Assembly (NCBI GenBank): GCA_964356315.1
Contig: CAYHHA010000007.1
Coordinates: forward strand, 1-61,367
Origin: an uncultured Gammaproteobacteria bacterium
GTDB taxonomy: Bacteria > Patescibacteriota > Microgenomatia > UBA10105 > UBA927
Direction: 5' to 3'
DNA length: 61,367 nt
Part shown: piece by piece, positions 1 through 60,589 of the stretch
Position numbering within the stretch: position 1 is the stretch's first letter
Layout of the letters: each line of letters begins with the position of its first letter
Translations under genes and position numbers: made by a program
The notes under the pieces: generated by a model
Told to the model about the DNA's origin: nothing
Databases searched by the model: none
What the model saw: only the letters and a program-made list of their open reading frames with translations

Positions 1-1
1 C

Positions 2-157
2 ATGCCGCCTCCTTTCGGAGTTGAAAATGGCACGACCCCAGTAAAAGAGACTTTGGTGGATTTCCTCTATTTCTGCATCAGAAAACTCGCGGTTAAACCG
101 TTTCTGAAAATATTCACGTATTTTATGTACTTGTTCTGTATCTGTTGATTGGTTCAC
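2..157 (-). CDS. Small hypothetical protein (partial, runs off the left edge), overlapping the ATG (3..1) of a downstream gene
   Basis: GTG at 157 opens MNQSTDTEQVHKIREYFQKRFNREFSDAEIEEIHQSLFYWGRAIFNSERRRH with no stop before the edge; its 3' end contains GAAAGGAGG 4 nt before ATG at 3..1. Not in the ORF track. Confidence 0.6.
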   Translation of the reverse strand, partial: MNQSTDTEQVHKIREYFQKRFNREFSDAEIEEIHQSLFYWGRAIFNSERRRH

Positions 158-185
158 GGAGAACGTGAACCTCTGGAAGATTTAG

Positions 186-235
186 GCACCAAAAAAACAA
201 CTATATCGTTGTTTTCTAAGTTATTTTTTTGTGCC
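186..235. repeat. Long imperfect inverted repeat upstream of the left-edge operon
   Basis: ggcaccaaaaaaacaact ... agttatttttttgtgcc; further hairpins at 151-171, 313-326 and 393-415. Confidence 0.6.
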
Positions 236-496
236 CGTTTCCGTCGTCTGTTGTGCAGCCAACTGAACTAGTAAACCATTAGGGGGTTATGAGGGAGCCC
301 CTGCTTAAATACGGTATCACGATACCCTCAATCTGCAATATGCATATTCAAAATGGGAATGCATACACTTTGGTGAAAATATAAACGTGCGAAAATCCTA
401 CAAAGGTAAGGATTTATTTACTGTGGTAGTATAATTACAGCACTTAATATTGTCAAACTGGGTTGAATATTTTACCCAAAATATACTACTAAAATT

Positions 497-1108
497 ATGC
501 GTAATGAACCACTTGGTGTACCCTCCATTGAAACACTACCCTTTTTATCCCGCGAAAGTGGATTTATTACATATGATCCAACTAACCAACAAGTTGCAAC
601 ATGGTTAAAAGAAAACTGGACTTTTGGATATAACCCACTTGCTGTTTCAGAAGCAAACAGAACAAGACAGTTGCAACTTATCCACCCTGATGGACACACA
701 TATAATTACTATGAACCAGGTCATTCATTTGAACATTATAGAAAAAATGCTACGGGAAAAGAACCTCATTTTCTCGGGCATATCACACAAGTTGGCTGGG
801 TAGAATTAGCAATACGAAAAAACTCTGGACTAATCGGTAGTGAAGATAAAGGAATTTGGACCGCAGCATGGGATCCGCAACGATGGTTTCCAGGTTCTTT
901 CCCTAAAGATTTTGATTTTATAAATCCTCCAGATCGTTTTATAGAATTAGTATTTGATGCTGAAAAACTAAGACAACAAGGGTTAGTCGGATCAAAAGTT
1001 GAACCAATGGAGTATTACAAATTTAATACTCGAATACCAATGACAGCCCTTGTGGATACATCCTTGATGTATATTAATCAAGTTTTGGGATTAACAGTTC
1101 TAAACTAA
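497..1108 (+). CDS. Hypothetical protein, possible ADP-ribosyltransferase/Tpt1-like fold in the C-terminal half
   Basis: 203 aa; pattern GHIT...I...GL...IW...LVFD..KL...EY...RIP..AL. Confidence 0.55.
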   Translation: MRNEPLGVPSIETLPFLSRESGFITYDPTNQQVATWLKENWTFGYNPLAVSEANRTRQLQLIHPDGHTYNYYEPGHSFEHYRKNATGKEPHFLGHITQVGWVELAIRKNSGLIGSEDKGIWTAAWDPQRWFPGSFPKDFDFINPPDRFIELVFDAEKLRQQGLVGSKVEPMEYYKFNTRIPMTALVDTSLMYINQVLGLTVLN

Positions 1109-1149
1109 CCTAGAATTAGGTATGTTCCGATTTCGTCCCAGCACGTGTA
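1105..1149 (-). repeat. Boundary repeat family A, copy 1 (encodes YTCWDEIGTYLILG*)
   Basis: Homologous to 2445-2477 with mainly third-position differences. Confidence 0.75.
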
Positions 1150-1202
1150 CAAGCAAAGTGCACTCATAAGAAGAATTGATTACATATCAAACTTTATAGA
1201 TA

Positions 1203-2342
1203 TTACTCAAGCGATAAATCTATTACTTTTTCAATTGGAGCAATTACATGATCATTTCCCTGACTCCAACTATACTCAGAATTCGCAGGATTTGAATCCG
1301 GATATTGAGGAAAATCTAAAACAGTATATTCTGCAAATAATTTTTTTAACGTTGTGGCAATGATTGGCAAAGGAATGTCTTGATTTTCAGAGCGAATTTT
1401 CTGAACGACACCATGTATTGATTCTGATAAAAACCTGAACATGCGATCACTTGCTTCAGCTTCTGATTCTCCTTTTAGCTGTGCTGGAAATTCTGCAATT
1501 TTATGAAGATTTCCAAGAACTATCGCTGACGTTTCATTTGGTTTTACATTAGATCGTTTATAGTCAAGCATCGCTAGGCCAATTTTTGCATTTCTCATTG
1601 AAAGTCGTGCTGGATTATAGAGTATTGGTTTAGTAATATCCGCTATCATATTGATTAATGATGGAGCCGATTGTGTCACCTCTGTCTGCAAATTATTATT
1701 AAATATTGGTATTCGCAGTCCACTAACGGCAATTCCTGCTATAGCTGCCAAGCCAAATTTTAGAAATTGGCGTCTGGTCATAGGTACATTAAATAGACTT
1801 CTATTAGGATCATCTTGTGTACGCTCGGACAGAATTTTATACAGGAGTGAACCGGAAAATGCCGCAAGACCTGCTCCAACTGTTTCAATTCCATATGCTC
1901 TATTTAATTCACTACGTGCAAATGCATTCTGATCTATTGGTGGTTTAAATGATAAATCAATCTTCGATAGGATAGAAAAAACTTTATCCCACGACTGATG
2001 ATCGGTCAAAGAATTTCCCGAATCTTCGGTTATTTGTGGAATATCAGCACCTATGAGCCTAACTACTGATTCAGGAGCTTGAAAATGATTACTCTTTTCA
2101 GATGGGAAATATATATCCGCATAATTACTAAAAGATCCAGGACTTAGTGAGTCTGCGGCAATAATATTTGGCCTAGGATTGATTGATGCTATCGCCGATT
2201 GTACTTCGGTAGACCAAATGGTTCTGTTTAACGGAATATCACCTGTTGCATGTTCACCAAAAACTACATGAGTTGAATGAGTACCGTAAACTTCAGTTGT
2301 GCCTAAATTCAAATTCGATTCTTCACTTACTTGATCAAACAT
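1203..2342 (-). CDS. Hypothetical membrane protein with internal twin-arginine-like motif
   Basis: 379 aa; hydrophobic segment then MTRRQFLKFGLAAIAG mid-protein. Confidence 0.7.
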   Translation of the reverse strand: MFDQVSEESNLNLGTTEVYGTHSTHVVFGEHATGDIPLNRTIWSTEVQSAIASINPRPNIIAADSLSPGSFSNYADIYFPSEKSNHFQAPESVVRLIGADIPQITEDSGNSLTDHQSWDKVFSILSKIDLSFKPPIDQNAFARSELNRAYGIETVGAGLAAFSGSLLYKILSERTQDDPNRSLFNVPMTRRQFLKFGLAAIAGIAVSGLRIPIFNNNLQTEVTQSAPSLINMIADITKPILYNPARLSMRNAKIGLAMLDYKRSNVKPNETSAIVLGNLHKIAEFPAQLKGESEAEASDRMFRFLSESIHGVVQKIRSENQDIPLPIIATTLKKLFAEYTVLDFPQYPDSNPANSEYSWSQGNDHVIAPIEKVIDLSLE

Positions 2343-2414
2343 ACGTTCATATTACATTACAGGCATGAAATTTGTAATATATATTTCAGTATAGACATTC
2401 TAGTAATTTTTCTT

Positions 2415-2477
2415 TTAAATACATATTATTGATGTATTTGATGCTAAATACGTTCCAATAGCGTCCCAACAGGTGTA
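2415..2477 (-). repeat. Boundary repeat family A, copy 2 (encodes YTCWDAIGTYLASNTSIICI*)
   Basis: Homologous to 1117-1149. Confidence 0.75.
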
Positions 2478-2546
2478 TCTAAACTGACGCATACCAATTG
2501 AATAGTAATATAGCTTCATTCCAACAAAAACAAGCGTTCGAGATCC

Positions 2547-2577
2547 CATTTAGCCTCAATTTTAACTTGAGGCTAAA
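2547..2577. repeat. Perfect 12-bp inverted repeat with 7-bp spacer
   Basis: atttagcctcaa-ttttaac-ttgaggctaaat; the ttagcctcaa arm recurs near 3631, 4665 (inverted), 6518 and 10323. Confidence 0.8.
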
Positions 2578-2731
2578 TAACGAGACACCCCACCCTGTTT
2601 CGAACTAAAGTACAAAATCCGTCAAGAGTATCCATCGATCACATATGCCTTAATATTCATCTTCTACAAAGCAACCTATATCAGGTTTCAAAATAGTATT
2701 GTGGCGAATTACCATATTATATGGATTTATA

Positions 2732-2760
2732 TTGACTAATGTAGCACATTGTGCTACGAT
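2732..2760 (+). promoter_or_regulatory. Sigma70 promoter with overlapping palindromic operator for TA pair 1
   Basis: TTGACT-17-TACGAT; palindrome gtagcaca-t-tgtgctac at 2741-2757; ATG 7 nt downstream. Confidence 0.75.
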
Positions 2761-2767
2761 TTCTTAA

Positions 2768-3052
2768 ATGATATTTGTACGCAAACTCATTTGGGACACA
2801 TGGAATATACATCATATTGCAAAACATCATATATTACCGGATGAGATTGAAGAAATTTGTCATGGGTCACCATTAATATTACAAGGACAACAAAAGAAAC
2901 GTTTAGTTTTAATCGGCCTAACAGACGAGCAATCTATATTGACAGTTGTGCTTGAATCACAAGGACACGGAGTATACTACCCAATAACAGCATATCCATC
3001 AGATTCACATGACATTACATTATATAAACATTTAAAAGGAGGTAAAAAATGA
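2768..3052 (+). CDS. BrnT-family (DUF497) type II toxin
   Basis: 94 aa, WD..N..HI.KH.I...E.EE and YPITAY motifs. Confidence 0.85.
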   Translation: MIFVRKLIWDTWNIHHIAKHHILPDEIEEICHGSPLILQGQQKKRLVLIGLTDEQSILTVVLESQGHGVYYPITAYPSDSHDITLYKHLKGGKK

Positions 3053-3330
3053 AAACAAAAACTATTCAAAAAAGTAGAATTCCACAATTTGTAAATAGAC
3101 AAGAAGAGGCTAAGTTTTGGGAGAGTCATAGCATATCTGACTTTATAGACGAACTTAAGCCTGTCAATGTGCGTTTTGCTAAAAACCTATCTGAAGGTCT
3201 TCATATTCGATTGAACTCACAAACATTACAGACTCTTCGCGAAAAAGCGAAGAATAAAGGAATTGGCCCTACAACACTTGTTCGCATGTGGATATTGGAA
3301 CAACTCCAATCAGTGCAGCAGCAGATATAG
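3049..3330 (+). CDS. CopG/BrnA-type antitoxin
   Basis: IPQF...EEAKFWESHS and IRL...A..KGIG..TL.RMWI; ATGA overlap and GGAGG SD. Confidence 0.85.
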   Translation: MKTKTIQKSRIPQFVNRQEEAKFWESHSISDFIDELKPVNVRFAKNLSEGLHIRLNSQTLQTLREKAKNKGIGPTTLVRMWILEQLQSVQQQI

Positions 3331-3354
3331 AAATATTTAATGTTCTAACGAGTA

Positions 3355-3448
3355 TCAATCGTTTTCGACGACTTCGCTTTCGTTGTTAGATGCTTCTATT
3401 AACTTAGTTAAAAACTCAAAAACTGGTTCGAAATAAAATGCACTAGGG
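3355..3448 (-). repeat. Boundary repeat family B, copy 1 (24-bp core 3425-3448; encodes PSAFYFEPVFEFLTKLIEASNNESEVVEND*)
   Basis: ggttcgaaataaaatgcactaggg identical at 3425, 4614 and 6307. Confidence 0.85.
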
Positions 3449-3456
3449 GTACATAG

Positions 3457-3487
3457 GAAAAACGCTCAGAAAATCTGAGCGTTTTTC
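3457..3487. terminator. Bidirectional intrinsic terminator-like hairpin
   Basis: gaaaaacgctcaga-aaa-tctgagcgtttttc. Confidence 0.7.
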
Positions 3488-3497
3488 GTATATTCTA

Positions 3498-3602
3498 GTC
3501 GAATTTGGACCGGTCCCCGGTTCGCCGTCCAGCAGTAGACATTTTGATTCATAGAGAAATGTCGTATTGCTGGTGAGTGCCGAGAGTTCTCGGCAATCCG
3601 GC
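3498..3602 (+). ncRNA. Candidate structured RNA/ssDNA, copy 1
   Basis: Stems ccagcagta/tattgctgg, gacattt/aaatgtc, tgccgaga/tctcggca; pairing is conserved in the copy at 6381-6486. Confidence 0.45.
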
Positions 3603-3862
3603 TGGAGATACTAAACTTTGTTGATATGTATTAGCCTCAAGGTTGTGCAAAAACCCTGATGTGACTAGCCCTGCCCCCTGGCAGGCAGGTATTTCACACC
3701 CGGCGTGTGTAAGTGCAGTCATTAATAAATCAAATAAGCTGATATATCAACGAGAATAGGGTTTGATATGATCGAGCGATTTCAATCTATTCAGCCCCAA
3801 ACCCCAACCGGACTCGAACAAATATTTTTAAATACCCTTGATAATTATTCTATATTACTGTA

Positions 3863-3890
3863 TTGACAATCAATGTACAGATGATATTAT
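3863..3890 (+). promoter_or_regulatory. Sigma70 promoter of TA pair 2
   Basis: TTGACA-16-TATTAT with extended TG; ATG 6 nt downstream. Confidence 0.65.
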
Positions 3891-3896
3891 GCAGAT

Positions 3897-4205
3897 ATGG
3901 CTTTTCGTATTAAATTTAACGAGGAAAAAAACCAACTACTAAAAGCCACGAGAGGAGTTAGTTTCGATACTGTGATTATCTCTATCAAGGAAGGCGGATT
4001 GTTAGCTGATATTCATCATCCAAACCTAAAACACTCCAAACAAAAAATATACGTTATTGTGGTTGAAGAGTATGTATACGCTGTTCCATATGTAAAAAAC
4101 AATGAAAGAAAAGAAATTTTTCTAAAGACTGTCTACCCAAGCAGGGCATTAACCAAAAAATATTTGATGAAAGGAGGTAAATATGAAAAAAATAAATCCA
4201 AATGA
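3897..4205 (+). CDS. BrnT-like type II toxin
   Basis: FNEEKN.LLK..RG.SF...HPN...Y.Y.VPYV...IFLKT.YPSR. Confidence 0.85.
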   Translation: MAFRIKFNEEKNQLLKATRGVSFDTVIISIKEGGLLADIHHPNLKHSKQKIYVIVVEEYVYAVPYVKNNERKEIFLKTVYPSRALTKKYLMKGGKYEKNKSK

Positions 4206-4494
4206 TTTATTCACTAATATATATTTAGATGCAGAAGAGAAATCTTTAGAAACAGCATTTGAAAATGATGAATTTGAAGAGGATTCTGATTTTCTTAACA
4301 CGAAGACTATGCTTGAAGAGGCTGCAAAGAATTACTTGGAATTAAATACGGCAAAACCGATTACTATTCGAGTAAATCAATTTGACCTCATTAAGGTAAA
4401 GGCGAGAGCGAAACGGAAACAAATTCCATACCAAACACTACTTGGATCCTTAATTCATCAATATGCTGAAGGAAAACAAGACGTAAGTTTATAA
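4183..4494 (+). CDS. CopG/RHH-type antitoxin
   Basis: ITIRV...DL..VK..A....IPYQTL..S.IHQY; GGAGG SD. Confidence 0.85.
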   Translation: MKKINPNDLFTNIYLDAEEKSLETAFENDEFEEDSDFLNTKTMLEEAAKNYLELNTAKPITIRVNQFDLIKVKARAKRKQIPYQTLLGSLIHQYAEGKQDVSL

Positions 4495-4549
4495 GATTTA
4501 AGTATTTTTTGATCCTAACACTTTTAGTGATAGACGGAGTAAGCAATAA

Positions 4550-4637
4550 TCAATCAGTTTCCAACATAGCTTTTTGGTATTCTTCCATTAATTTACCTAA
4601 CCATTCAAGCACAGGTTCGAAATAAAATGCACTAGGG
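4550..4637 (-). repeat. Boundary repeat family B, copy 2 (encodes PSAFYFEPVLEWLGKLMEEYQKAMLETD*)
   Basis: 24-bp core at 4614-4637; extended match ccatt(c/g)aagcaca to copy 3. Confidence 0.85.
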
Positions 4638-4771
4638 GCACTGAAACTGACGCACACTAATTTATTGAGGCTAATTACATTAGTTTATGGATTCTAATTC
4701 CATAATTTAGTCAATATTTATGCATTTAAAATCTATAACCTATCATCACGGAGTGCAAAAGACTAATTTGG

Positions 4772-5446
4772 ATGACTAAACATGCACTTGACACGTTTCT
4801 AATTACTCCTGATAATAGACAGTATATGGAAACGTATTCGCGTATTGCTTTGAGCAATCTTCTTGTTTCATCCCCGTTGAGATTATTTGACCTCACCACC
4901 TTAAAGCAGACACTCAATATCCGAAGTGAAAGTGCTTTCTACCGTATCCTAAATCAATTTGTATCAGAGAAGGTATTAGCAATCGTGAAGCCTGGCGTCT
5001 ACTACAAAGTGAATACCCCACCTGATCAGTACGAAATTGCCAACTATCTTATCCGACCTTCGTATATCTCATTCGAAACTGCTCTGAATCACCACGGTAT
5101 TTTACCTCAATTCCCTCTCATTACTACATCAGCAACAACGCAAAAAACTCAAAAGAAAACAGTGTTCAATGGCGATTACACCTATACCCATCTCTCTCCA
5201 AAAATGTTTTTTGGCTTCAAAAAATATTCAGAACATCTCTTGGCTGAACCAGAAAAATGCCTGATAGACTACGTATATCTACGGATGAAACTCGGCACGA
5301 AACCAGATATGAATGAGTGGGATTTTGAACACGTTGATACCAAAAAGCTTTCCCTCTATTTAACATACATGGAGGATGTCAAAGGATATCAATCCGTAGT
5401 TAAAATTATTTCAGAACAAACACCATGTTTACCAACGACGAAATAA
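4772..5446 (+). CDS. Type IV TA AbiEi-family antitoxin (true start may be 4826)
   Basis: wHTH N-terminus, PSYISFETAL.HHG and AEPEK.L.DY motifs. Confidence 0.85.
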   Translation: MTKHALDTFLITPDNRQYMETYSRIALSNLLVSSPLRLFDLTTLKQTLNIRSESAFYRILNQFVSEKVLAIVKPGVYYKVNTPPDQYEIANYLIRPSYISFETALNHHGILPQFPLITTSATTQKTQKKTVFNGDYTYTHLSPKMFFGFKKYSEHLLAEPEKCLIDYVYLRMKLGTKPDMNEWDFEHVDTKKLSLYLTYMEDVKGYQSVVKIISEQTPCLPTTK

Positions 5447-6204
5447 CCAAGCGCGCCAATAAAGTGCAGATCAGCCCGGTTGTAATTTACCGTGAATTTG
5501 CACAGTTATTGTTTCTTGAACGCTTATCACAGTCAAAAATGAATGCAAACTTCATTTTTAAAGGCGGTACTGCCATTAGACTTCTCATGAAAGGCGATCG
5601 CTTTTCTGAAGATCTTGATTTTACTGTTACAGACCTCACAAGCGATCAGGTCGTTTATATATGCACATCTCTTGTCAGACAAATGAATTCCGAAGTAACC
5701 GTATCGATGAAATCTACTCCTTCACCATCAGGTCTTTCGCTCAAATTATATATTGCAGCACCATTTCAAAAACAAACCATACCTATCAAGCTAGACTTCT
5801 CATTCCGTGAAATTTCAATTGATGTAATTCATAGCACAATTATTTGCGATTATCCGATCATTTTCCGAAATCTGTGTTATTACTATTCACCTCGTGAAAT
5901 GATTGCTGAAAAAGTTCGTGCCCTTTTACACCGTCAGAAGGGTCGTGATCTCTACGATCTGTGGTTCTTGCTTTCCATGCAGGCGGAATTTGATGAACAG
6001 TTGATCGCGAAAAAATTAGCATACTATTCAGAAACTTTTTCAAAATTAGAATTCATTGAAAAAATACAAAGTTTTCCGAAGAAAGATTTCGTTGCGGATC
6101 TACTTCCCTTCATTGGTAAAAAAGAACGAGATTCTCTTGATACCCTCTACGGGGTCATTCAGTCGTATCTCATGCAAAAATTAAATGAAGTAACTGCAAA
6201 ATAA
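5425..6204 (+). CDS. AbiEii/AbiGii nucleotidyltransferase toxin
   Basis: FKGGTAIRL, RFSEDLDF, AEK.RA, RDLYDL. Confidence 0.9.
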   Translation: MFTNDEITKRANKVQISPVVIYREFAQLLFLERLSQSKMNANFIFKGGTAIRLLMKGDRFSEDLDFTVTDLTSDQVVYICTSLVRQMNSEVTVSMKSTPSPSGLSLKLYIAAPFQKQTIPIKLDFSFREISIDVIHSTIICDYPIIFRNLCYYYSPREMIAEKVRALLHRQKGRDLYDLWFLLSMQAEFDEQLIAKKLAYYSETFSKLEFIEKIQSFPKKDFVADLLPFIGKKERDSLDTLYGVIQSYLMQKLNEVTAK

Positions 6205-6267
6205 GATATAATCATCACAGAGGACTAGCAATCCTTTTTAGATTACATTAACTGCCTCAGATTTGTT

Positions 6268-6330
6268 CTAATATACTTCTATTAACTCATCCACCATTGA
6301 AGCACAGGTTCGAAATAAAATGCACTAGGG
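6268..6330 (-). repeat. Boundary repeat family B, copy 3 (PSAFYFEPVLQW, then after a 1-nt shift DELIEVY*)
   Basis: 24-bp core at 6307-6330. Confidence 0.8.
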
Positions 6331-6588
6331 ATACTGTATAAATAATCTCGCATCATAGCGGGATTTTTTATGCACTCTCGGTGGGATTTGGACAGGCTTA
6401 CCGGTTCGCAGTCCAGCGGTAGATAATTCGATTCCCAGAGAATTGTCGTACTGCTGGTGAGTGCCGAGTGCGCTCGACAATCTGGCTTGGGGGGGGGTAC
6501 AAATTTAGTTGAAACAATTAGCCTCAAATATCCCGATGTTTCTAGCCCTGCCTGCCGACAGGCAGGTATTTCACACACGGTGTGTGTA
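6307..6588. repeat. ~290-bp composite non-coding element, copy 2
   Basis: Colinear with 3425-3712; right part nearly identical to 10320-10391. Confidence 0.85.
6381..6486 (+). ncRNA. Candidate structured RNA/ssDNA, copy 2
   Basis: Stems ccagcggta/tactgctgg, gataattc/gaattgtc, tgccgag/ctcgaca. Confidence 0.45.
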
Positions 6589-6596
6589 ATAATGTA

Positions 6597-8612
6597 TTAC
6601 TTGGAATTAAGCTCACTACTTTTGGATGCAGGTTCTGTAGTTAATAACAGTTTAATATCTTTTATAATCGTCAAAATATCTTCTGAATCCTCATCGGATG
6701 TATAGTATATTTGGTCACCATTTTTCTGAACCTGCTCATAAATACCCTTCCCATATTGCTTAACAAATAAATCTTTAACTATCGACTCCTTCTTATTGAA
6801 ATACGATTCAATTATCTCTTCTTTAGGAAATCGATTAGCTAGCAACGAAACAACTTCTAAAAGCTCTGGATAACCATCATACTTTGGATTTGAAAAGATT
6901 AATGATTGTGATTTTAATAATTTAGCTAGTAGTTCAGAAGTCAAGAAATCCGTAATACCTTCATTTAAAAATTTTGGGTATGATCTTTCTGAGTAATACG
7001 TTCTGAAGTGGAGCATCTCATGTAATAAAGTATGGATATAATAAGACATTCTATATTCCTGTCCGGGATAGAGTTTAATATATATATTGTTTGGTGAATC
7101 AAAGACTCCAGCCTGAATTTCAGGTGTTACAGGATCTTTCAGAAAATTTGAGTATGATCTTTGCCATGCAGCCAAATTCAAATTCCATTTTGGCCTAACG
7201 TCTATGTACTCTTTAAGATAACTTTCGCTTTGGTTCTTATCTGAAATTATCTGGCGTAGGCTGTTTTCAATCGTTTGTTTCCCCTCCCTGCAAATAGATT
7301 CATCCTTTCCTAGGTTTGATTCACAAGCAGATATCCAACCCTTTCCATAGGATTCGTATTTACGATACTCTCCATCAGAAGCGCTAATAGCGTTTTTCAA
7401 ATCTATAATCGAATTATCAATTTCTTTTATAGTGTTGCGTACATCTTGTATTCCATACAACAAACTATTCTCTATTTCTTTTTCTTTCTTCTTTTGCACG
7501 AGGATGTACTCATCGACTGGAAGAAATGATACTATTGGCTTTTTTAAAGATTTGTTTAAATAGTCTTTATAGTTGGAGTCTAGTAACTTACTAGCGAGAA
7601 CTATGGATAATTTTTCAATTGTGATGTTGCTTGGATTATTTGAAATTAAAGTATGCGATGGAAACAATAAGACTTCAAATTTAACTTTTTCTTTTAACGA
7701 AGCTGACTCTGACGCATAAAGTAGGCTTGGAATAATTACAGAACGATATAATGTATCTTTATCCGTATGTGAAATCTTCTTATATTGCAATACGACTTCG
7801 GTAACTGGGTCGTATTCAAAAAATGCCGGAATCGCTAGTTCCTTTTCTATAGCTTCACTAATACCTTGAATCGATTCAATTATACCTACCTTAGATCTTT
7901 CCTCTGAAGAGGATAATATATCAATTGAGGTAATAATTTCTTGATTTGCTTGTTTAGTTAACCCAAATATTACGTAAGTTGGAACGTAAGAATAGAGTGC
8001 AAATATTATAACTGGGTAGGCTTGTTGAATTAGTAAAAATATTAATAAAAATCTTTTTGCTACCACCCTCCGTAATTTGTAAATAACCCACAGAGAAAAA
8101 GCCACACTAAAGACCAGAAGCAGCGCTATAAAAATCCCGTCGTATCCACAAAAGGACCAAGAGCTCGTACTTAATGAACAAGTAAATTTCTGTAATAGCA
8201 AAGAAGTTGGGTTAGTTATGAATGAGTCAGCGACATCAAAAAGTTTACTTGTAATCGCAAAATTCCACTTCTGATTATATGATACCCAGAGTGATCCAGC
8301 CGTGCAAATTGAAAATATAGCCAAATATGCTAAATATCGTAAATTAAAAAACAGTTGCAGCACTGCATTCCTGAGGCTATATTTTTTTGCGTTCTTGACC
8401 TTTTTTTTACGTTTAGAACGTAAAGGGGATGTTGCGTGTTTATGTTTTTTACGTAAAAAATAGTAAATAGTTGATAAACCAAAAAAAGGCAAAAACCAAA
8501 GGAGTGAACTAAATGATTTATTAATAATTGACTGAACAATTCCGCCAAAACCCACACCTATTATAATTGCTACTACCAGTAGAGTAATACCTTTTATAAT
8601 TAGATTAATCAT
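6597..8612 (-). CDS. Polytopic membrane protein with coiled coil and C-terminal zincin metallopeptidase domain
   Basis: Several N-terminal TM segments; HTLLHEMLH...FLNEGITD. Confidence 0.75.
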   Translation of the reverse strand: MINLIIKGITLLVVAIIIGVGFGGIVQSIINKSFSSLLWFLPFFGLSTIYYFLRKKHKHATSPLRSKRKKKVKNAKKYSLRNAVLQLFFNLRYLAYLAIFSICTAGSLWVSYNQKWNFAITSKLFDVADSFITNPTSLLLQKFTCSLSTSSWSFCGYDGIFIALLLVFSVAFSLWVIYKLRRVVAKRFLLIFLLIQQAYPVIIFALYSYVPTYVIFGLTKQANQEIITSIDILSSSEERSKVGIIESIQGISEAIEKELAIPAFFEYDPVTEVVLQYKKISHTDKDTLYRSVIIPSLLYASESASLKEKVKFEVLLFPSHTLISNNPSNITIEKLSIVLASKLLDSNYKDYLNKSLKKPIVSFLPVDEYILVQKKKEKEIENSLLYGIQDVRNTIKEIDNSIIDLKNAISASDGEYRKYESYGKGWISACESNLGKDESICREGKQTIENSLRQIISDKNQSESYLKEYIDVRPKWNLNLAAWQRSYSNFLKDPVTPEIQAGVFDSPNNIYIKLYPGQEYRMSYYIHTLLHEMLHFRTYYSERSYPKFLNEGITDFLTSELLAKLLKSQSLIFSNPKYDGYPELLEVVSLLANRFPKEEIIESYFNKKESIVKDLFVKQYGKGIYEQVQKNGDQIYYTSDEDSEDILTIIKDIKLLLTTEPASKSSELNSK

Positions 8613-8640
8613 ATCGGCTATCTAGATCTGATTTCACAGA

Positions 8641-8916
8641 TTACAATCCTATTCCAACTGGCAAATTCTGTTGATCTGATGAGTTTGTAGGATATTTCTC
8701 ATAAAGAGATGACACGTAACCACTTATATCATCTCTCCATTTGGTGAATTCAGTTTTCCACTGTTCTTGTGATGCATTACTTTTCTCTAAAGTAGCGGTT
8801 TCTGTTCGATGAAGATTACGGAAGTATATGAATGAAGCTATTACTCCGATACAAGAAAGAGTCGATAGTAGAAGGCTAATAAATACCAGCGTTTTTAACA
8901 TGTGCTTAACGATCAA
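8641..8916 (-). CDS. Small membrane-anchored hypothetical protein (start may be 8901)
   Basis: N-terminal hydrophobic helix; co-oriented 28 bp upstream of the zincin gene. Confidence 0.6.
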   Translation of the reverse strand: MIVKHMLKTLVFISLLLSTLSCIGVIASFIYFRNLHRTETATLEKSNASQEQWKTEFTKWRDDISGYVSSLYEKYPTNSSDQQNLPVGIGL

Positions 8917-8986
8917 TCTAGCAATCGAAATACAGTCTCCGATTTGACTTTAATTAGTATTGTACTCCTAATATTGAATCAATGAT

Positions 8987-9027
8987 AATATGTTCTGAAT
9001 ATGTTCTGAATATGTTCTGAATATGTT
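8987..9027. repeat. Tandem 11-mer (aatatgttctg) x3.7
   Basis: Direct reading. Confidence 0.9.
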
Positions 9028-9434
9028 AAATCGAATACATTTGGATGTGTATATATGGATACACATGACGAGATATGCTCATGTTTTCCTACTGTCTCAC
9101 AGCATGCACAAGGCTAATCACTCAAGATGTAGCTTTAGCCGTTTTGTATTGATTCTTACTCTCAGTCTAGATAAGAAACCTCATTTGATTTATGCCATTG
9201 CAATGGCATAAACGAATTACTGAGGATTATAGAGTCTGTACCTGCAAAAGAAGGATGGAGGAAATCAACAGATCAAGAATATAAATTTTGCTTAAGAGAT
9301 AATGGCTTATAAATTTGTTTATCGGTATGAAATATGCTACAGTAAGAGTGTAAGAGGGCCTCAGAAAACTTCAATTCTTCAGTTAATAAATTCCCAAGGT
9401 TTGAGTAGATAATTACGAAAGGAGGTGAACAAAT

Positions 9435-9653
9435 ATGAATGCATTTTCAGAAGCAAAATTTATTCGTTTTGAAGACAAAGTCTTTTTTGTAGACTTAACT
9501 ACATTTAGTAAGCCTGGAGGAAAATCTGTTTTCTTAATAATTTTCCCTGATGGATCAGGCCGTCCAGCTAAAGGGTCAGATGGGCCTATGATGGATATAT
9601 TATTTTCGGGTAGATCCTTTGATACTGCAAAGGAGGCGTTTGATGCTTCCTGA
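9435..9653 (+). CDS. Small hypothetical protein
   Basis: 72 aa with strong SD gaaaggaggtg. Confidence 0.65.
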   Translation: MNAFSEAKFIRFEDKVFFVDLTTFSKPGGKSVFLIIFPDGSGRPAKGSDGPMMDILFSGRSFDTAKEAFDAS

Positions 9654-9727
9654 GTTTTGATTGATGGTCAACCAGACAGTCATGCCATATAAAGAAGTAA
9701 TTGCAGTTACAATAGAAAGATACAAAT

Positions 9728-10441
9728 ATGATATATACAACCCTTATTCATAAGGCAATTCAATTTGCCATAAAAACCCATGAGCTTGACGCTAAGCAGA
9801 GAAGAAAAGGAACAGATGTTCCTTATGTTACTCACCCACTAACGGTCGGAATAATTCTTAGCCGTGTAACGGATGATGAAAATATCATTGCAGCTGGTAT
9901 ACTCCACGACACCATTGAAGACTGCGAACCATATGGGACTACCACAAAAGAGATGATCACAGAGAAGTTTAATAGTGAGATAGCGCAAATGGTTGATGAT
10001 GTGACGGAGCAGGATAAGACCCTCTCATGGATGGAACGAAAATTAGCAGCATTTGAACATATCAAACACATGAATCATGGATCACTACTCGTGAAGTCAG
10101 CTGATGTGCTTCACAATCTGACTGAGCTAAATGATGATGTTGCCACGAATGGAATTAGTGTATTTAGTAAATTTAATGCCTCTCAGGAGGATACGATCCA
10201 AAGATACCAAAAGCTTATTCCTGAAATCCAAAACACTTGGATTGAAAATCCGATATGCGATGATTTGCGCATTGCACTTGAGACGCTTATTAAAGCTACA
10301 TTACCGCCAAAGAATGTATCAATTAGCCTCAAATATCCCGATGTTTCTAGCCCTGCCTGCCGGCAGGCAGGTATTTCACCCCAGGTGTGTACTAGTATTT
10401 GCTTTGCCAAAAACGCCATATTGAGCATAAATATTCTTTGA
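9728..10441 (+). CDS. HD-domain protein, Mesh1/small alarmone hydrolase-like, with repeat-derived C-terminus
   Basis: Q.RKG...PY..HP..V, AGILHDTIED, LVKSAD.LHNL. Confidence 0.85.
   Translation: MIYTTLIHKAIQFAIKTHELDAKQRRKGTDVPYVTHPLTVGIILSRVTDDENIIAAGILHDTIEDCEPYGTTTKEMITEKFNSEIAQMVDDVTEQDKTLSWMERKLAAFEHIKHMNHGSLLVKSADVLHNLTELNDDVATNGISVFSKFNASQEDTIQRYQKLIPEIQNTWIENPICDDLRIALETLIKATLPPKNVSISLKYPDVSSPACRQAGISPQVCTSICFAKNAILSINIL
10320..10391. repeat. Partial composite element, copy 3, with CCTGCCTGCCGGCAGGCAGG palindrome
   Basis: Near-identical to 6515-6587; lies inside the HD ORF. Confidence 0.85.
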
Positions 10442-10636
10442 GGCGACGGCTCAAACAACTCATTCCAGAGCTGTATTGTGCCTAAATATATTGAAAATGA
10501 GCAAAAGATGACAATAAATGCTATAATGCAACTACAGAAAGGAGACATTGTAGGTATCTATACTACGTTGCCTCTCTAGCTTTACAGCAAGAGTGAGTCT
10601 TTGTATTCAAGGAATATTTACAATTTAAAAAATACT

Positions 10637-10834
10637 ATGACAGGTACAGTTAAAACTAAAACCGATCGAGGATTTGGATTTATCAGCCGTGACGGCGAAG
10701 CAAAAGATTTATTCTTTCATTCTAAAGAATTGAATGGAGTAACTTTTGATGAACTTCAGGTTGGCGCAACAGTAACATTTGATGTTGCTGATGGAGAAAA
10801 AGGTCCATTTGCTAAGAACGTAAAACTCGCATAA
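10637..10834 (+). CDS. cspA: Cold-shock protein
   Basis: RGFGFI and LFFHS RNP motifs; ATG at 10637. Confidence 0.95.
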   Translation: MTGTVKTKTDRGFGFISRDGEAKDLFFHSKELNGVTFDELQVGATVTFDVADGEKGPFAKNVKLA

Positions 10835-10851
10835 TATCCAATTGGATATAG

Positions 10852-10885
10852 CGAAAAAAAGCCCCGTGAAAGCGGGGCTTTTTCG
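10852..10885. terminator. Bidirectional intrinsic terminator between csp and glgA
   Basis: aaaaaagccccg-tgaaag-cggggcttttt. Confidence 0.85.
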
Positions 10886-10902
10886 TGGGGTTCAATTGAT
10901 TG

Positions 10903-12378
10903 CTAGGAACTTAGGATTTTCTGATACAACGATAAGTATTGTTTTGCAGATTCCGTCCAGGAAAAATCCCGTTTCATGGCCGACCAAACCATTTTGTTAT
11001 GTTTTTTTGCATTTTCTGATCGCACGGCTAGAGCGCTAATGATGGTTTCTTCTAGATCTATAGACGAAGATTTTGCAAATATATATCCGTTTTTCCCATG
11101 AATAACAGTATCATTGAGGCCCCCTGTCGCTCGCGCAATCGGAAGAGCTCCGTAGCGCATTGCGTTCATTTGAATGAGACAGCATGGCTCAAAATATGAG
11201 GGAATCATCATAAAATCGCTCGCGGCGTAAATAAGAGACGCTAACGCATCGTCATAAACCGTTGTCACGGAAACTCTATCTGGATTAAATGCGCTCAGCA
11301 GATGAAACCGTTCTTCCCATGACTCTTCGCCCTGTCCCATAATGACAAATTGACACTCCTGGAGCGCATCTCTCGCGATCATTCTATGAATAAGATCTAT
11401 CCCCTTTTGTCTCTGATCTAAACGGCCGATATATCCGACGATTGGAATAGCGCTATTCACTGGCAGCTGTAATCGCTCCTGAAGTTTCTTTTTATTTATC
11501 TGCTTTCCTCGGGTAATATCCACAACAGAAGCGTCATCAATCGTGTCTTTTTCTTTTGCAGAATACCGAACATCCAGAAAGCTATTTGTAGCCGGATTTT
11601 TCAACATATAGTCTATACCGTTTAGTATTGCGGTGGTTTTGTACATATGCTCACGGATGACAACATCTAAACCCACACCATGCTCTTCTGTCTGAATCTC
11701 CTTTAGGTAGGTAGGCGATACAGTATTTACCCAATCAGCATTTATGATCCCCTCTTGCAATAAGTTAAATTGATGCGATACAGATTCCCATTTTAACAAC
11801 GATAATGCCTCACGGGGAATATGAAGTTTCTCAGCAATGAGTGGAGAAAATTTCCGTTGATGCGTAATACAATGAATGGTCAGAAGCGATTTTATCGGAA
11901 GTTTGTTTGCTTTTATAAGAAGGGGGATCAGTCCACAATGATTATCATTACAGTGGACAAGATCCGGCACCCATGCCCCAAACAATCCCCGCTTTACTGC
12001 TTCCACGACGGCCAGAGCGAACACAACAAACGTTTCAGCAATCGGCTTATCAAAATATTGTTTATTCCCTAAAAGATACACAGGAATATCTGTATTGAGA
12101 AAAAATATTTTATGAAGCGTAATTTCCAATTTTTGCGTACCATAAAGGATAGTAAAACCAGCTTCTCGCTTTTTTCGCTGACCCAATACCTTGAGCGCTT
12201 TATAATGAGGGATGACTAATCTAATATCTACACCTATTGATTTGAGAGCCCTAGGGAGAGACCGGGCTACTTCTCCTAATCCTCCGACCTTCAAGAAAGG
12301 CTCAACTTCCCATACAGCAAATAAGATTTTCGGCTTGACCGTGACATTCTTTGCTAGTATTGAAGTTCTATAGGACAT
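10903..12378 (-). CDS. glgA: Glycogen/starch synthase (GT5)
   Basis: KVGGLG, HCND, VSPTY, QKG.DL, PSYFEPC. Confidence 0.9.
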   Translation of the reverse strand: MSYRTSILAKNVTVKPKILFAVWEVEPFLKVGGLGEVARSLPRALKSIGVDIRLVIPHYKALKVLGQRKKREAGFTILYGTQKLEITLHKIFFLNTDIPVYLLGNKQYFDKPIAETFVVFALAVVEAVKRGLFGAWVPDLVHCNDNHCGLIPLLIKANKLPIKSLLTIHCITHQRKFSPLIAEKLHIPREALSLLKWESVSHQFNLLQEGIINADWVNTVSPTYLKEIQTEEHGVGLDVVIREHMYKTTAILNGIDYMLKNPATNSFLDVRYSAKEKDTIDDASVVDITRGKQINKKKLQERLQLPVNSAIPIVGYIGRLDQRQKGIDLIHRMIARDALQECQFVIMGQGEESWEERFHLLSAFNPDRVSVTTVYDDALASLIYAASDFMMIPSYFEPCCLIQMNAMRYGALPIARATGGLNDTVIHGKNGYIFAKSSSIDLEETIISALAVRSENAKKHNKMVWSAMKRDFSWTESAKQYLSLYQKILSS

Positions 12379-35528: not shown

Positions 35529-37486
35529 TTCCATCAATTTTATTTACCTTTGAAGCGCTCCTATTAATATATGCCGTTACCTTTATCGTGGCATCAGTTG
35601 CATCTTTTATTTGCATCCGTGCAATTACTACACACAACATAGCGCATCATATCTTTATTACAATTATTCTGCTTGCGGTCATCATCGGATCAAATATTTC
35701 TATCGGAATTTTGCTCTCTAAACGAGTGTCTCAGGTGCCAAAAATTTCCCAAAGTATCCCTGCCAATAATCAAATACTTCCGGTTCATTCATCTACTATT
35801 CATTTGGAATTTTCTGAGCCGATTGTATATTCTGCTTTGCAAATCCATACATTCCCTGAAAATGAAATAACAATAACACCAGAAAGATATTTCTATCCTA
35901 ACTCGACAATCGGAAGAAAACTTATCATATCTCCTAAAAAGCCATTCACTCCCGGAACTCAAGTCATGATATATATCTCTAATATTAAAGGACCGCTTAC
36001 TCATGGATTTGGAGGAGAACAGCTCATAGAACTAAACGCAGAAACACTTCCAAAGATTGTATCTCTGTTATCTCCGACACTATTTTCGGATGTGCCAACT
36101 TCTCAAGATATTCGATTGCTTTTGGATAAACCTTCGGAAACTTACAGCACTTGGAACATACAATCTACGCCTTTGGCTTCATTTGCTATACACTATGAAA
36201 AAAATGAATTATTGATTCAACCAACCACACCACTCAAACAGGGTACGACCTATACAGTTTCTTTATCCCAAATCCCACTCGCTGAAAACCAAATAGATTC
36301 ACCAGTATCGACCGTCCCGCCTTCAATTCCGGATCGTTCAATCACATTTTCGACTATTAGTCCTCCATTTATTCAAACTATTTCCCCGTCGGGACAAACC
36401 ATATATCCCGATGAGGATATCATCATCGATTTCAAACAAGCTATGAATATACTAGATTCGAAAATATTTCTTTCAATTGTTCCACAAACTGAACACAAAG
36501 TAATTTGGGAAAGAAAAAATATGAGAATGCGAATATCTCATAATTCGTTTCCAAAAAATTCCTCTATCTCTGTAACACTTTCGAAAGGATTTCGCACTGA
36601 GTCCGGGGGAGTTCTCGAACAGGATATTCGATATGATTTCATAACTCCAGGGCAACTGAACATACTCGCATCCTCACCGGAAAATCTACAGAAAGAATCG
36701 CCCGTTGATTCATCCATTCAAATACAATTTAACCAACCTATTTCTGATTCGACGATACAAAAATATATCACGGTGAATCCTATTTTTCCATTTACACTCT
36801 CTGCGAGCGAATCGTCAGTAATTATATCCCCAACAAAACCACTCAACACAAACACTATCTATACTGTAACTATCTCACCTAATGCTCAGCCAGTACATGG
36901 ATTTCCTCCTGAAAATGCGCTCACCTTGTCCTTCTCAACAATCGGTGATCGCGTCGTATTGCCAGTGCCATATTTCAAACAAGAGTCACCATTCACTTGT
37001 AATATCGCAGCGGTGAGAATGCTACTTGCTTACAAAAATATTACCGTATCAGAGCGCGATATCATACAAAGAATTGGCACTTCGGATGTTCGTGGCAAAG
37101 GAAATCCTTATCTGGGGTACATTATCGACTATGGAACATATTGGGACGCTATTTCTAAAGGGATATCTGGATATTCCGCGAATACCGTTATCAAAAATGG
37201 CACACTTAAACAACTAACATCAATCATAGCAACGGGAAAGCCAGTAATGGTCTGGGGACAAAATGGATGGAGTGATCCACATGATATATCGTGGACCACC
37301 CCTGATGGTAAATACATAAAAGCGATAAATGGCATGCATTCTTCTGTCATTCGGGGATTCAGAGGAACCGCTGATAATCCGACCGAAATATATCTCAATG
37401 ATCCATGGAGAGGACAATATTCTATATCAACAAAAGAATTTTTGCGTCGTTGGGGATATTTTAGCGTGGCATTAGTACTGCAATAA
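35522..37486 (+). CDS. Membrane protein with Ig-like (Big_5) repeats and C39-like peptidase
   Basis: Repeated P..I...F..P units; Q....TC..AA.RM, H, DP. Confidence 0.8.
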   Translation: MVIPSILFTFEALLLIYAVTFIVASVASFICIRAITTHNIAHHIFITIILLAVIIGSNISIGILLSKRVSQVPKISQSIPANNQILPVHSSTIHLEFSEPIVYSALQIHTFPENEITITPERYFYPNSTIGRKLIISPKKPFTPGTQVMIYISNIKGPLTHGFGGEQLIELNAETLPKIVSLLSPTLFSDVPTSQDIRLLLDKPSETYSTWNIQSTPLASFAIHYEKNELLIQPTTPLKQGTTYTVSLSQIPLAENQIDSPVSTVPPSIPDRSITFSTISPPFIQTISPSGQTIYPDEDIIIDFKQAMNILDSKIFLSIVPQTEHKVIWERKNMRMRISHNSFPKNSSISVTLSKGFRTESGGVLEQDIRYDFITPGQLNILASSPENLQKESPVDSSIQIQFNQPISDSTIQKYITVNPIFPFTLSASESSVIISPTKPLNTNTIYTVTISPNAQPVHGFPPENALTLSFSTIGDRVVLPVPYFKQESPFTCNIAAVRMLLAYKNITVSERDIIQRIGTSDVRGKGNPYLGYIIDYGTYWDAISKGISGYSANTVIKNGTLKQLTSIIATGKPVMVWGQNGWSDPHDISWTTPDGKYIKAINGMHSSVIRGFRGTADNPTEIYLNDPWRGQYSISTKEFLRRWGYFSVALVLQ

Positions 37487-60107: not shown

Positions 60108-60476
60108 TGCGGGATCGTATTTCATACTGAGCAAAGCTGCGAGATCGTACTGTGTCCCTCGAAGCCCGAAGGGCGAAGTGGGATAATGGTAGACGTCCCG
60201 CTGAGCGGGATTATCTAGGTTCATTGAAAATATACATATGTTAGCAAAGTTGCGGGATCGTATAATGGTAGTACGCATCCCTCTGGAGGATGTTATCTAG
60301 GTTCGAGTCCTAGTCCCGCAGCTTTGCCAATATTTTGGTGCCGATAGCAGTACATCGTCCTAGTCCCGCAGCTTTGCTCAGTAATAATAGTAGTACGTCC
60401 CGCTAAGCGGGATTATCTAGGTTCGCCCGCCTGCATCGCTTTGCGAAGCAAATCGGGAAGGAGTCCTAGTCCCGCA
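60108..60476 (+). pseudogene. Two split, degenerate tRNA-Gln copies nested around the intact gene
   Basis: Fragments at 60108-60120, 60138-60222, 60357-60370 and 60384-60476 match parts of 60251-60321. Confidence 0.8.
60251..60321 (+). tRNA. tRNA-Gln (anticodon CTG), no encoded CCA
   Basis: Acceptor TGCGGGA/TCCCGCA, anticodon arm CATCC-ctCTGga-GGATG, T arm CTAGG-TTCGAGT-CCTAG. Confidence 0.95.
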
Positions 60477-60589
60477 AAAATTCTAATTGAGATTTTGATA
60501 TCTATGCATCATTTCCAATCTATTTTGGGGATGCCAAGTTCAACGAGATATGCATTACATAAACTAAAATAATAGTTTCCATAAAATTT

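Follow-up and report, generated by a model that had tools for sequence, protein, structure and literature searches.

Tail-encoding repeats beside toxin-antitoxin operons of a Microgenomatia contig as probable attachment-site arms of serine integrases at tRNA-Glu(CUC)

Why should a short stretch of DNA stay identical at three places of one contig, each time beside a toxin-antitoxin (TA)-like operon, while the DNA to its left has diverged and still encodes much the same peptide? The question is raised by positions 3,355 to 6,330 of contig CAYHHA010000007.1 (assembly GCA_964356315.1), from an uncultured bacterium placed in the Microgenomatia; the window is the whole stretch analyzed, 61,367 nucleotides. 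The repeats were named Family B in an earlier note made from the letters alone. Comparing them with the rest of the genome, with relatives, and with metagenome contigs, we consider them probable P' arms of the attP sites of elements that encode large serine recombinases (LSRs) and integrate at the 3' end of tRNA-Glu(CUC).

The repeated core and its likeness to tRNA-Glu(CUC)

The exact 24-mer at the center of the repeats lies on the plus strand at 3425-3448, 4614-4637, and 6307-6330, and even with up to 3 mismatches allowed, the window holds no other match. Shuffling the window 100 times produced no 24-mer match at all (chance expectation, 0), and across the whole assembly (1.7 Mb, 82 contigs) these three copies are the only exact ones. 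The exact search and the shuffles thus confirm the earlier note's statement that the core is identical at three places. A match with 3 mismatches on contig C71 was set aside as chance: it lies inside an HlyD-like gene, in a different reading frame. The exact 24-mer was absent from the viral contigs and species-representative genomes searched. Three further core copies were retrieved from metagenome contigs by exact match, and the invariance of the core rests on the window copies only. To the right of the 24-mer, identity between the copies stops abruptly after a few bases; the stretch common to copies 2 and 3 measures 31 nt. Rfam at gathering thresholds returned only tRNA-Gln from the whole window, and at E values of up to 1 it gave no match in positions 2300-6700, indicating no known RNA family there.

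Among the 45 tRNAs of the genome, tRNA-Glu(ctc) (C12:36001-36077) is the only one that ends in CTAGGGGTAC, and a search of tRNA 3' ends for ctagggg, the string singled out in the earlier note, gave exactly this tRNA. The core matches it at 8 of 8 positions in the T-loop box, as the T-loop-like start described before had implied, and in copy 1 at 10 of 10 positions of the acceptor end, from which copies 2 and 3 depart by 1 to 2 bases near the end. The tRNA likeness therefore holds, but not as a straight copy of the tRNA end. Anchored on AC, core and tRNA have the boxes GGTTCGAA and CTAGGGGTAC in common, whereas 20 nt follow the first box in the core and 15 nt in the tRNA; the site is 28 nt long in the core and 23 nt long in tRNA-Glu(ctc), with 5 extra bp between the boxes and a different middle segment. 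When 3 to 12 nt were allowed between the boxes, this loose pattern picked out five places in the whole genome: it spans 23 nt in the two tRNA-Glu genes and 28 nt in each of the window sites. Comparison showed the same offset of 5 bp between tRNA-Glu(ttc) and the right junction of an integrated element on contig C15, between tRNA-Leu(cag) and an orphan copy of the conserved peptide (orphan tail) on contig C33, and between tRNA-Glu(ctc) and an orphan tail in genome G399.

An offset of this size has been described for a Listeria-phage integrase, whose zinc-ribbon motif lies at positions 16-24 of the attP half-site and at 11-19 of the attB half-site, 5 bp nearer the center (Rutherford et al. 2013, PMC3783163, in the part of that account used here). 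Counted from AC, the GGTTCGAA box sits in that attP range in the core and in the attB range in the tRNA. Because the box falls in these published ranges, we interpret the core as a P'-type half-site that imitates the B'-type half-site of the tRNA. Invariant DNA followed by invariant peptide would then be a natural example of the attP/attB spacing rule, seen in four independent tRNA/P' pairs. When the three copies are compared with three tRNA-Glu(ctc) loci and with the C15 junctions, the last step common to all is the dinucleotide AC, and homology ends there; by this comparison, AC is likely the crossover dinucleotide. The earlier view that an invariant core with abrupt divergence on its right marks a crossover site agrees with this, identity ending at the predicted crossover.

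The conserved peptide and the ends of LSR genes

Read on the minus strand, copies 1, 2, and 3 give PSAFYFEPVFEFLTKLIEAS..., PSAFYFEPVLEWLGKLMEEY..., and PSAFYFEPVLQWWMS*, each opening a short frame in which PSAFYFEP is followed by an amphipathic stretch and then a stop. The FEP of the peptide is the GGTTCGAA box read in frame. In copy 3, the ending ..DELIEVY* is recovered only through a 1-nt shift (read by eye), and the sequence confirms the frameshift pointed out earlier. No consistent start codon or long upstream frame was found at any of the three copies. In five Family B tails (two from the window and three from metagenome contigs), the proportion of synonymous differences (pS) exceeded that of nonsynonymous differences (pN) over codons 9-22 in 10 of 10 pairs, and third-position changes dominate. 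Since pS was greater than pN in every pair, the peptide appears to be under coding constraint, which upholds the claim that the DNA diverges leftward while the peptide pattern is kept.

A profile of the tail was searched in 401 genomes of the same class, 64 of which matched at E values of up to 1, mostly weakly. At E<0.01, there were 15 matches outside this genome; 14 lie in open frames of 32 to 83 residues, and the remaining one is the C terminus of a 550-residue protein of genome G193. When 19 tails from 18 genomes are aligned (no result depends on row L018, from G132), F, E, and L are invariant, and the consensus is P-x-A-x-Y-F-E-P-x-L-x-W-x-x-K-L-M-x-x-Y followed by acidic residues. A degenerate core pattern led to one extra orphan tail, beside a PLD-like gene. 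Searching this genome with the tails by tblastn found no full-length gene with such an end.

The relatives show how the tail is linked to an LSR. The G193 protein, named by its source as from a Candidatus Woykebacteria metagenome-assembled genome of the Microgenomates group, has the Pfam domains Resolvase, Recombinase, and Zn_ribbon_recom, which make it an LSR. LSR, tail, and a PLD-like gene are contiguous there, and this unrecombined site is located in a 107-kb contig. A homologue shares 82% identity with the G193 LSR across the C-terminal region that was searched; its body is the same, and a tRNA-antisense-like peptide replaces the tail after ..YGEP. In the single-contig genome G399, an orphan tail at 1329028 is directly followed by a PLD-like gene, then by about 28 kb, then by an LSR that reads antisense through tRNA-Glu(ctc), and then by greA. 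The 28-kb interval carries conjugation-type and restriction genes by their look, the Pfam scan having covered the PLD-like and LSR genes. Both G399 junctions have GTGACCCC in common, in the same frame relative to it (read by eye). Because of the split pair in G399 and the contiguous arrangement in G193, we take the tail to be the native C-terminal end of the LSR in its unintegrated form, from which integration would separate it. The amphipathic peptide of the earlier note is thus conserved, and its identity is refined to a putative C-terminal tail of the integrase itself.

This genome has two tRNA-linked LSRs, which read antisense into tRNA-Glu(ttc) on C15 and into tRNA-Trp on C22, and in the same-genus genome G001 an LSR reads antisense into tRNA-Glu(ctc). 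We sampled 20 further LSR loci of the class, taken by best score from the 241 of the 401 genomes with an LSR. Twelve read antisense into a tRNA, nine being flagged at the stop and three running right through the tRNA; of the eight that remain, two extend beyond the locus and one is masked. Serine rather than tyrosine integrases thus commonly stand tail to tail with tRNA genes in this candidate-phyla lineage (12 of 20 sampled). A tRNA-targeting integrase had been suspected from the start; the mimicry of tRNA-Glu(CUC) supports this, with a predicted LSR in place of the usual tyrosine integrase.

The C15 element itself spans 3.9 kb at tRNA-Glu(ttc) (G000:C15:29057-32929, locus L084) and carries an LSR, a rolling-circle Rep (PF23343), and small open reading frames (ORFs). 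At the end of C12, tRNA-Glu(ctc) marks the start of a second, near-identical copy, which accounts for the break of that contig: C12 ends 105 nt past tRNA-Glu(ctc), within an LSR 3' end 98% identical to that of C15.

We propose that the attP site lies inside the 3' end of the LSR gene and that each Family B arm is what an integrated element left in the chromosome at its tRNA-distal junction. The approximately 28 bp from AC (in the tRNA sense) out to the GGTTCGAA box would be the half-site bound by the recombinase, which would keep it constant as DNA, and the 20-odd codons beyond would encode the native amphipathic, acidic C-terminal tail of the LSR and so be kept only as peptide. On integration, the tail would be cut off the LSR gene, which would then end in a reading of the tRNA antisense strand, and the tail would stay at the far end of the element. 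The window would accordingly hold decayed elements arranged in tandem beside tRNA-Glu(CUC), each reduced to a TA operon and a junction, and the window copies do look like relics. The sequences themselves show the mimicry of the tRNA with 5 extra bp, the connection of tail and LSR in relatives, and the host trailer in the flanks; the order of these events, the contig join discussed below, and the crossover dinucleotide are what we infer from comparing the loci.

Host flanks, the array, and competing explanations

If the repeats are junctions, host DNA should follow the crossover. To the right of copies 1 and 3 lies a terminator, followed by an element partly covered by the 'Family A' of the earlier note. 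These flanks can be aligned, at 62% mean column identity, both with the trailer of tRNA-Glu(ctc) in genome G002, where the site is unoccupied, and with the DNA to the right of the C15 element; BLAST at E values of up to 0.001 did not detect the similarity to the G002 trailer. Because the alignment shows the trailer of an unoccupied site in these flanks, we read copies 1 and 3 as P'-crossover-host junctions. The part that we call 'A-left' (about 90 nt and hairpin-rich; 3500-3607, 6401-6487, and G000:C15:32997-33085) belongs to tRNA-Glu trailers; in G002 it is 39 nt shorter, it has no Rfam match, and its fold is mildly better than that of shuffles (z = -2.4). Copy 2 has no tRNA trailer on its right; its flank begins with the motif AAACTGACGCA..., common to a junction of C15 type farther left (site 0). 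The flanks just past the crossovers of site 0 and copy 2 (2479-2497 and 4642-4660) share AAACTGACGCAYACYAATT, which occurs nowhere else in the genome; it may be what remains of the opposite arm in a single type of element since lost.

The position of tRNA-Glu(CUC) relative to the window can be approached from the contig ends. The window starts inside a repeat that resembles the C15 element (Table 1), positions 1-300 are represented by several variant contigs at raised depth in the metagenome runs, and positions 1120-1157 match the distal junction of the C15 element. In G002, tRNA-Glu(ctc) lies 6.5 kb upstream of the csp gene that the window carries at 10.6 kb; positions 1-10500 of the window have no DNA counterpart in G001 or G002. 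Most likely, judging from these matches, the window continues from C12 across a collapsed LSR+Rep repeat and so lies beside tRNA-Glu(CUC). The LSR+Rep element beginning at tRNA-Glu(ctc) on C12 would then probably have its distal end at site -1, the leftmost junction of C15 type. For the tails of this type, a frame reading ..SEPTLVQFF.. was ruled out, the LSR's own frame giving YTCWDEIGTY...

Altogether, 5.3 kb of the window holds five junctions in the same orientation, two of C15 type and three of Family B, with small cargo between them. Each 24-mer lies just past the stop of a plus-strand two-gene operon and is convergent with it. The earlier statement that each core stands just downstream of a TA operon is correct as to position, while the second gene pair proved only weakly CopG-like; of all these operon genes, only CopG of the first pair and AbiEii exceed the Pfam cutoffs. 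Contigs of run X4 part from the window at two positions, 2445 and 2476, no more than 2 nt from the crossover predicted for site 0. The TA operons may be the parts that survive the decay of the elements.

Table 1. Positions of the junctions, tails, trailer copies, and putative cargo in the window
Feature	Coordinates	Strand	Remarks
Putative interior of a C15-like LSR+Rep element	1..189	+	90% identical to C15:31402-31590, same orientation; contig starts inside repeat
Site -1, putative C15-type P' arm	1105..1150 (junction 1123-1150)	-	Tail YTCWDEIGTYLILG*; reads YTCWDEIGTY..; 94.7% identity to C15:32899-32936
Site 0, putative C15-type P' arm	2415..2478 (junction 2447-2478)	-	Tail YTCWDAIGTY...* in C15-type LSR frame
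Putative cargo of relic 1: BrnT-like/CopG-antitoxin operon	2768..3330	+	CopG above Pfam cutoff; BrnT 20.7 bits vs 34.5, below
Putative orphan LSR tail 1	3355..3447	-	30 codons + stop; no upstream start codon; tail profile E=3.3e-14
Family B copy 1, putative P' half-site	3425..3452	+	24-mer 3425-3448, then GTAC; predicted crossover AC 3451-3452
tRNA-Glu trailer copy, putative B-side host flank	3453..3620	+	Terminator 3457-3487 + 'A-left'; aligns with G002 trailer and C15 right flank
Putative cargo of relic 2: second TA-like two-gene operon	3897..4494	+	CopG 22.7 bits vs 28, below Pfam threshold
Putative orphan LSR tail 2	4550..4636	-	28 codons + stop; tail profile E=2.5e-15
Family B copy 2, putative P' half-site	4614..4641	+	Predicted crossover AC 4640-4641
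Putative cargo of relic 3: AbiEi-like/AbiEii operon	4772..6204	+	AbiEii 108 bits, above Pfam cutoff
Putative orphan LSR tail 3	6282..6329	-	Decayed; 1-nt frameshift after ..FEPVLQW; tail profile E=0.0018
Family B copy 3, putative P' half-site	6307..6334	+	Predicted crossover AC 6333-6334
tRNA-Glu trailer copy, putative B-side host flank	6335..6505	+	Terminator 6344-6365 + 'A-left'

An array of this kind could also be read as a living one, in which the units between the cores are still-mobile cassettes without a recombinase, each made of a TA operon, a tail, and a core and excised and inserted in trans, as in an integron, by an LSR with its gene at another place. Several observations fit such cassettes: same-strand arrays of orphan tails recur elsewhere (three tails in 1.8 kb on G313:C16 and two on G440:C43); on C33, a 1.35-kb unit of a tail and an AbiEii-type operon stands directly against tRNA-Leu with no LSR; a close copy of the BrnT-like/CopG operon appears again with a Family B tail and core on metagenome contig L112; and the cores are intact although the tail of copy 3 has decayed. 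We nevertheless regard mobile cassettes as unlikely. Their cognate LSR was not found in the genome, and a P-type arm would be needed on the other side of each unit, where the flanks are a tRNA trailer or an unrelated motif; addiction to the TA genes alone would explain why these pieces survive in a decaying element. In addition, Logan contigs of four lake or freshwater runs (three of them possibly the source sample) included none that joins core to core without the unit, a weak point given that contigs drop rare variants and end at the 31-nt repeat of copies 2 and 3, the listed joints being the paralogous C15 locus (1157 to 6419) or having a side of 22 nt.

The commonest kind of tRNA-linked island would offer a more familiar explanation, in which the repeats are classical direct repeats of a tRNA-targeting tyrosine integrase, that is, partial copies of the tRNA 3' end. 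Their T-loop-like start and acceptor-like end are what it would predict, but the core is not colinear with the tRNA end, having the 5 extra bp and the different middle, and ARAGORN finds no tRNA there. Pfam matches of 56 window ORFs (16 within 2-12378 and 40 of at least 150 amino acids in 12855-59593) include no recombinase family, and the recombinases found at these tRNAs are serine recombinases, so that the tyrosine-integrase explanation is highly improbable. Equally little speaks for the peptide as a small free-standing gene or the core as an operator or RNA element of the neighboring TA operons: despite the position beside every operon and the purifying selection on the peptide, there is no start codon in common, the core lies past the operon stops and convergent with them, away from the promoters, the same tails adjoin PLD-like genes instead of TA genes in other genomes, and Rfam gives no match even at the permissive threshold used above.

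The preferred explanation, that the Family B repeats are P' arms of LSR elements, has to be held against several observations that weigh on the other side. The array contains two copies of the tRNA trailer, where a simple model in which older elements are pushed outward predicts one, and the C12-to-C7 join is covered by no contig. Exact-match retrieval means that the three metagenome cores cannot show invariance. The tail is joined to an LSR in 1 of the 15 strong outside matches (E<0.01), and one split pair, that of G399, was traced end to end. This assembly yielded no LSR with a frame that continues into a Family B tail; the three LSR genes found in it (that of C15, with its second copy starting at the end of C12, and those of C22 and C27) end otherwise. 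Serine integrases are also reported to recombine only attP with attB (PMC3783163, as far as the part consulted goes), which makes tandem accretion harder to explain.

The metagenome contig L110 bears on the same point. There an exact core joins a Family B tail and a PLD-like gene to a C15-type LSR and Rep; the core abuts the LSR, yet the tail is out of frame with it, an additional difficulty for the preferred explanation. The arrangement fits a tandem junction of two different elements and to this extent speaks for the preferred explanation. No LSR in frame with a Family B tail stood beside any exact core examined; the linkage consists of a homologous tail contiguous with its LSR in G193 and, for an exact core, of the out-of-frame case of L110 only. 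Since the L110 tail does not continue the frame of the adjoining LSR, the enzyme that belongs to Family B is deduced only from the type seen in G193 and G399.

Relation to known systems and further observations

A full-text literature search, supplements aside, found no description of this arrangement, which is no proof that none exists. Attachment sites within coding regions are familiar from other systems. SSV1-type archaeal integrases are tyrosine recombinases with attP within the integrase gene, and integration splits that gene into two large fragments. The LSRs discussed here are alike in having the site inside the integrase gene, so that integration splits it; the difference is that only a short tail would be exchanged and that the frame runs on into the tRNA antisense strand. 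In the integration-dependent immunity of mycobacteriophages such as BPs, attP lies in the repressor gene and the integrase is a tyrosine integrase. As in our case, attP is within a coding region, and the C terminus of a protein depends on whether the element is integrated or free; there, however, it is the repressor that changes, whereas here the integrase's own tail would be swapped. Chromosomal integrons hold cassette arrays that carry TA genes, and the window resembles them in its array of small TA units with a recombination site, always pointing the same way, at the border of each. It differs from them in having no IntI among the Pfam matches of the 56 window ORFs, in repeats without a common hairpin by eye, and in sites that would derive from a serine-integrase attP. 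An integron attC site was ruled out on the same ground, no IntI-type recombinase being among those matches.

Closer in enzyme type is the integrase of Listeria phage A118 (LI integrase), with which, as far as the available part of PMC3783163 goes, these systems share short sites, a zinc-ribbon motif placed 5 bp farther out in attP, and the same three-domain architecture of the recombinase. Compared with the portion of that account used, the systems here differ in that attP would lie inside the coding end of the integrase, so that integration would change its last 15 to 30 residues, and in that the target would be a tRNA 3' end imitated by the P' arm. Closer in island structure are the tycheposons (Hackl et al., 10.1101/2020.12.28.424599): in the portion of that report considered, 910 of 937 elements have tyrosine recombinases and the relics are true partial tRNAs. 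Serial integration at one tRNA, older elements pushed outward, degenerate remnants, and repeated junctions are common to both, on the same partial view of that source, whereas the relics here would be +5 mimics that also encode an integrase tail. The combination proposed here, namely, a tRNA-targeting serine integrase with attP in its own coding end, a tRNA-mimicking arm offset by 5 bp, and a tail exchanged on integration, is unusual.

A more speculative extension, which we consider possible though rather doubtful, is that a Microgenomates-group clade of serine integrases uses integration as a switch, the enzyme having a conserved amphipathic and acidic tail when the element is free and an arbitrary tRNA-antisense end when it is integrated. 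If so, the tail swap would alter the activity, stability, or direction of the integrase, and orphan tails would be retained, since excision has to bring them back. An exchange of the integrase C terminus on integration would newly couple the form of the enzyme to the state of the element. As a bolder corollary, TA units with tail and core would be a serine-recombinase analogue of the integron cassette array at tRNA genes. The paired sites provide attB/attP predictions for integrases of uncultured bacteria, which are of interest as genome-engineering tools, and the finding would explain contig breaks and island structure in these small genomes.

Several smaller features were seen near tRNA genes or within the window. 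'A-right', a GC-rich palindrome (CCTGCC..GGCAGG), occurs in the window at 3640-3712, 6515-6590, and 10320-10390, at the end of contig G000:C10, and at G000:C33 ~11748-11887, and it is widespread in genomes of the family and order. An element of this type on C33, about 100 nt long, has at its flanks a 20-nt stretch duplicated from the 3' end of tRNA-Leu. Small genes of GIY-YIG type (by eye) stand directly beside tRNAs at G000:C12 ~35730-36000, G000:C33:11958-12200, and G000:C22 (L038 1022-1411). An 11-nt tandem repeat, AATATGTTCTG, is present in 3 copies at 8987-9027 of the window, and two of the four runs compared have one unit more. At the far end of the window, around tRNA-Gln(ctg) (60251-60322), the 21-mer of the tRNA 3' end is found again at 60357 and, with 76% identity, at 60463, and tRNA-like 5' parts lie at 60180-60222 and 60385-60424 (all within 60180-60485); these surroundings may be another tRNA-linked insertion hotspot.

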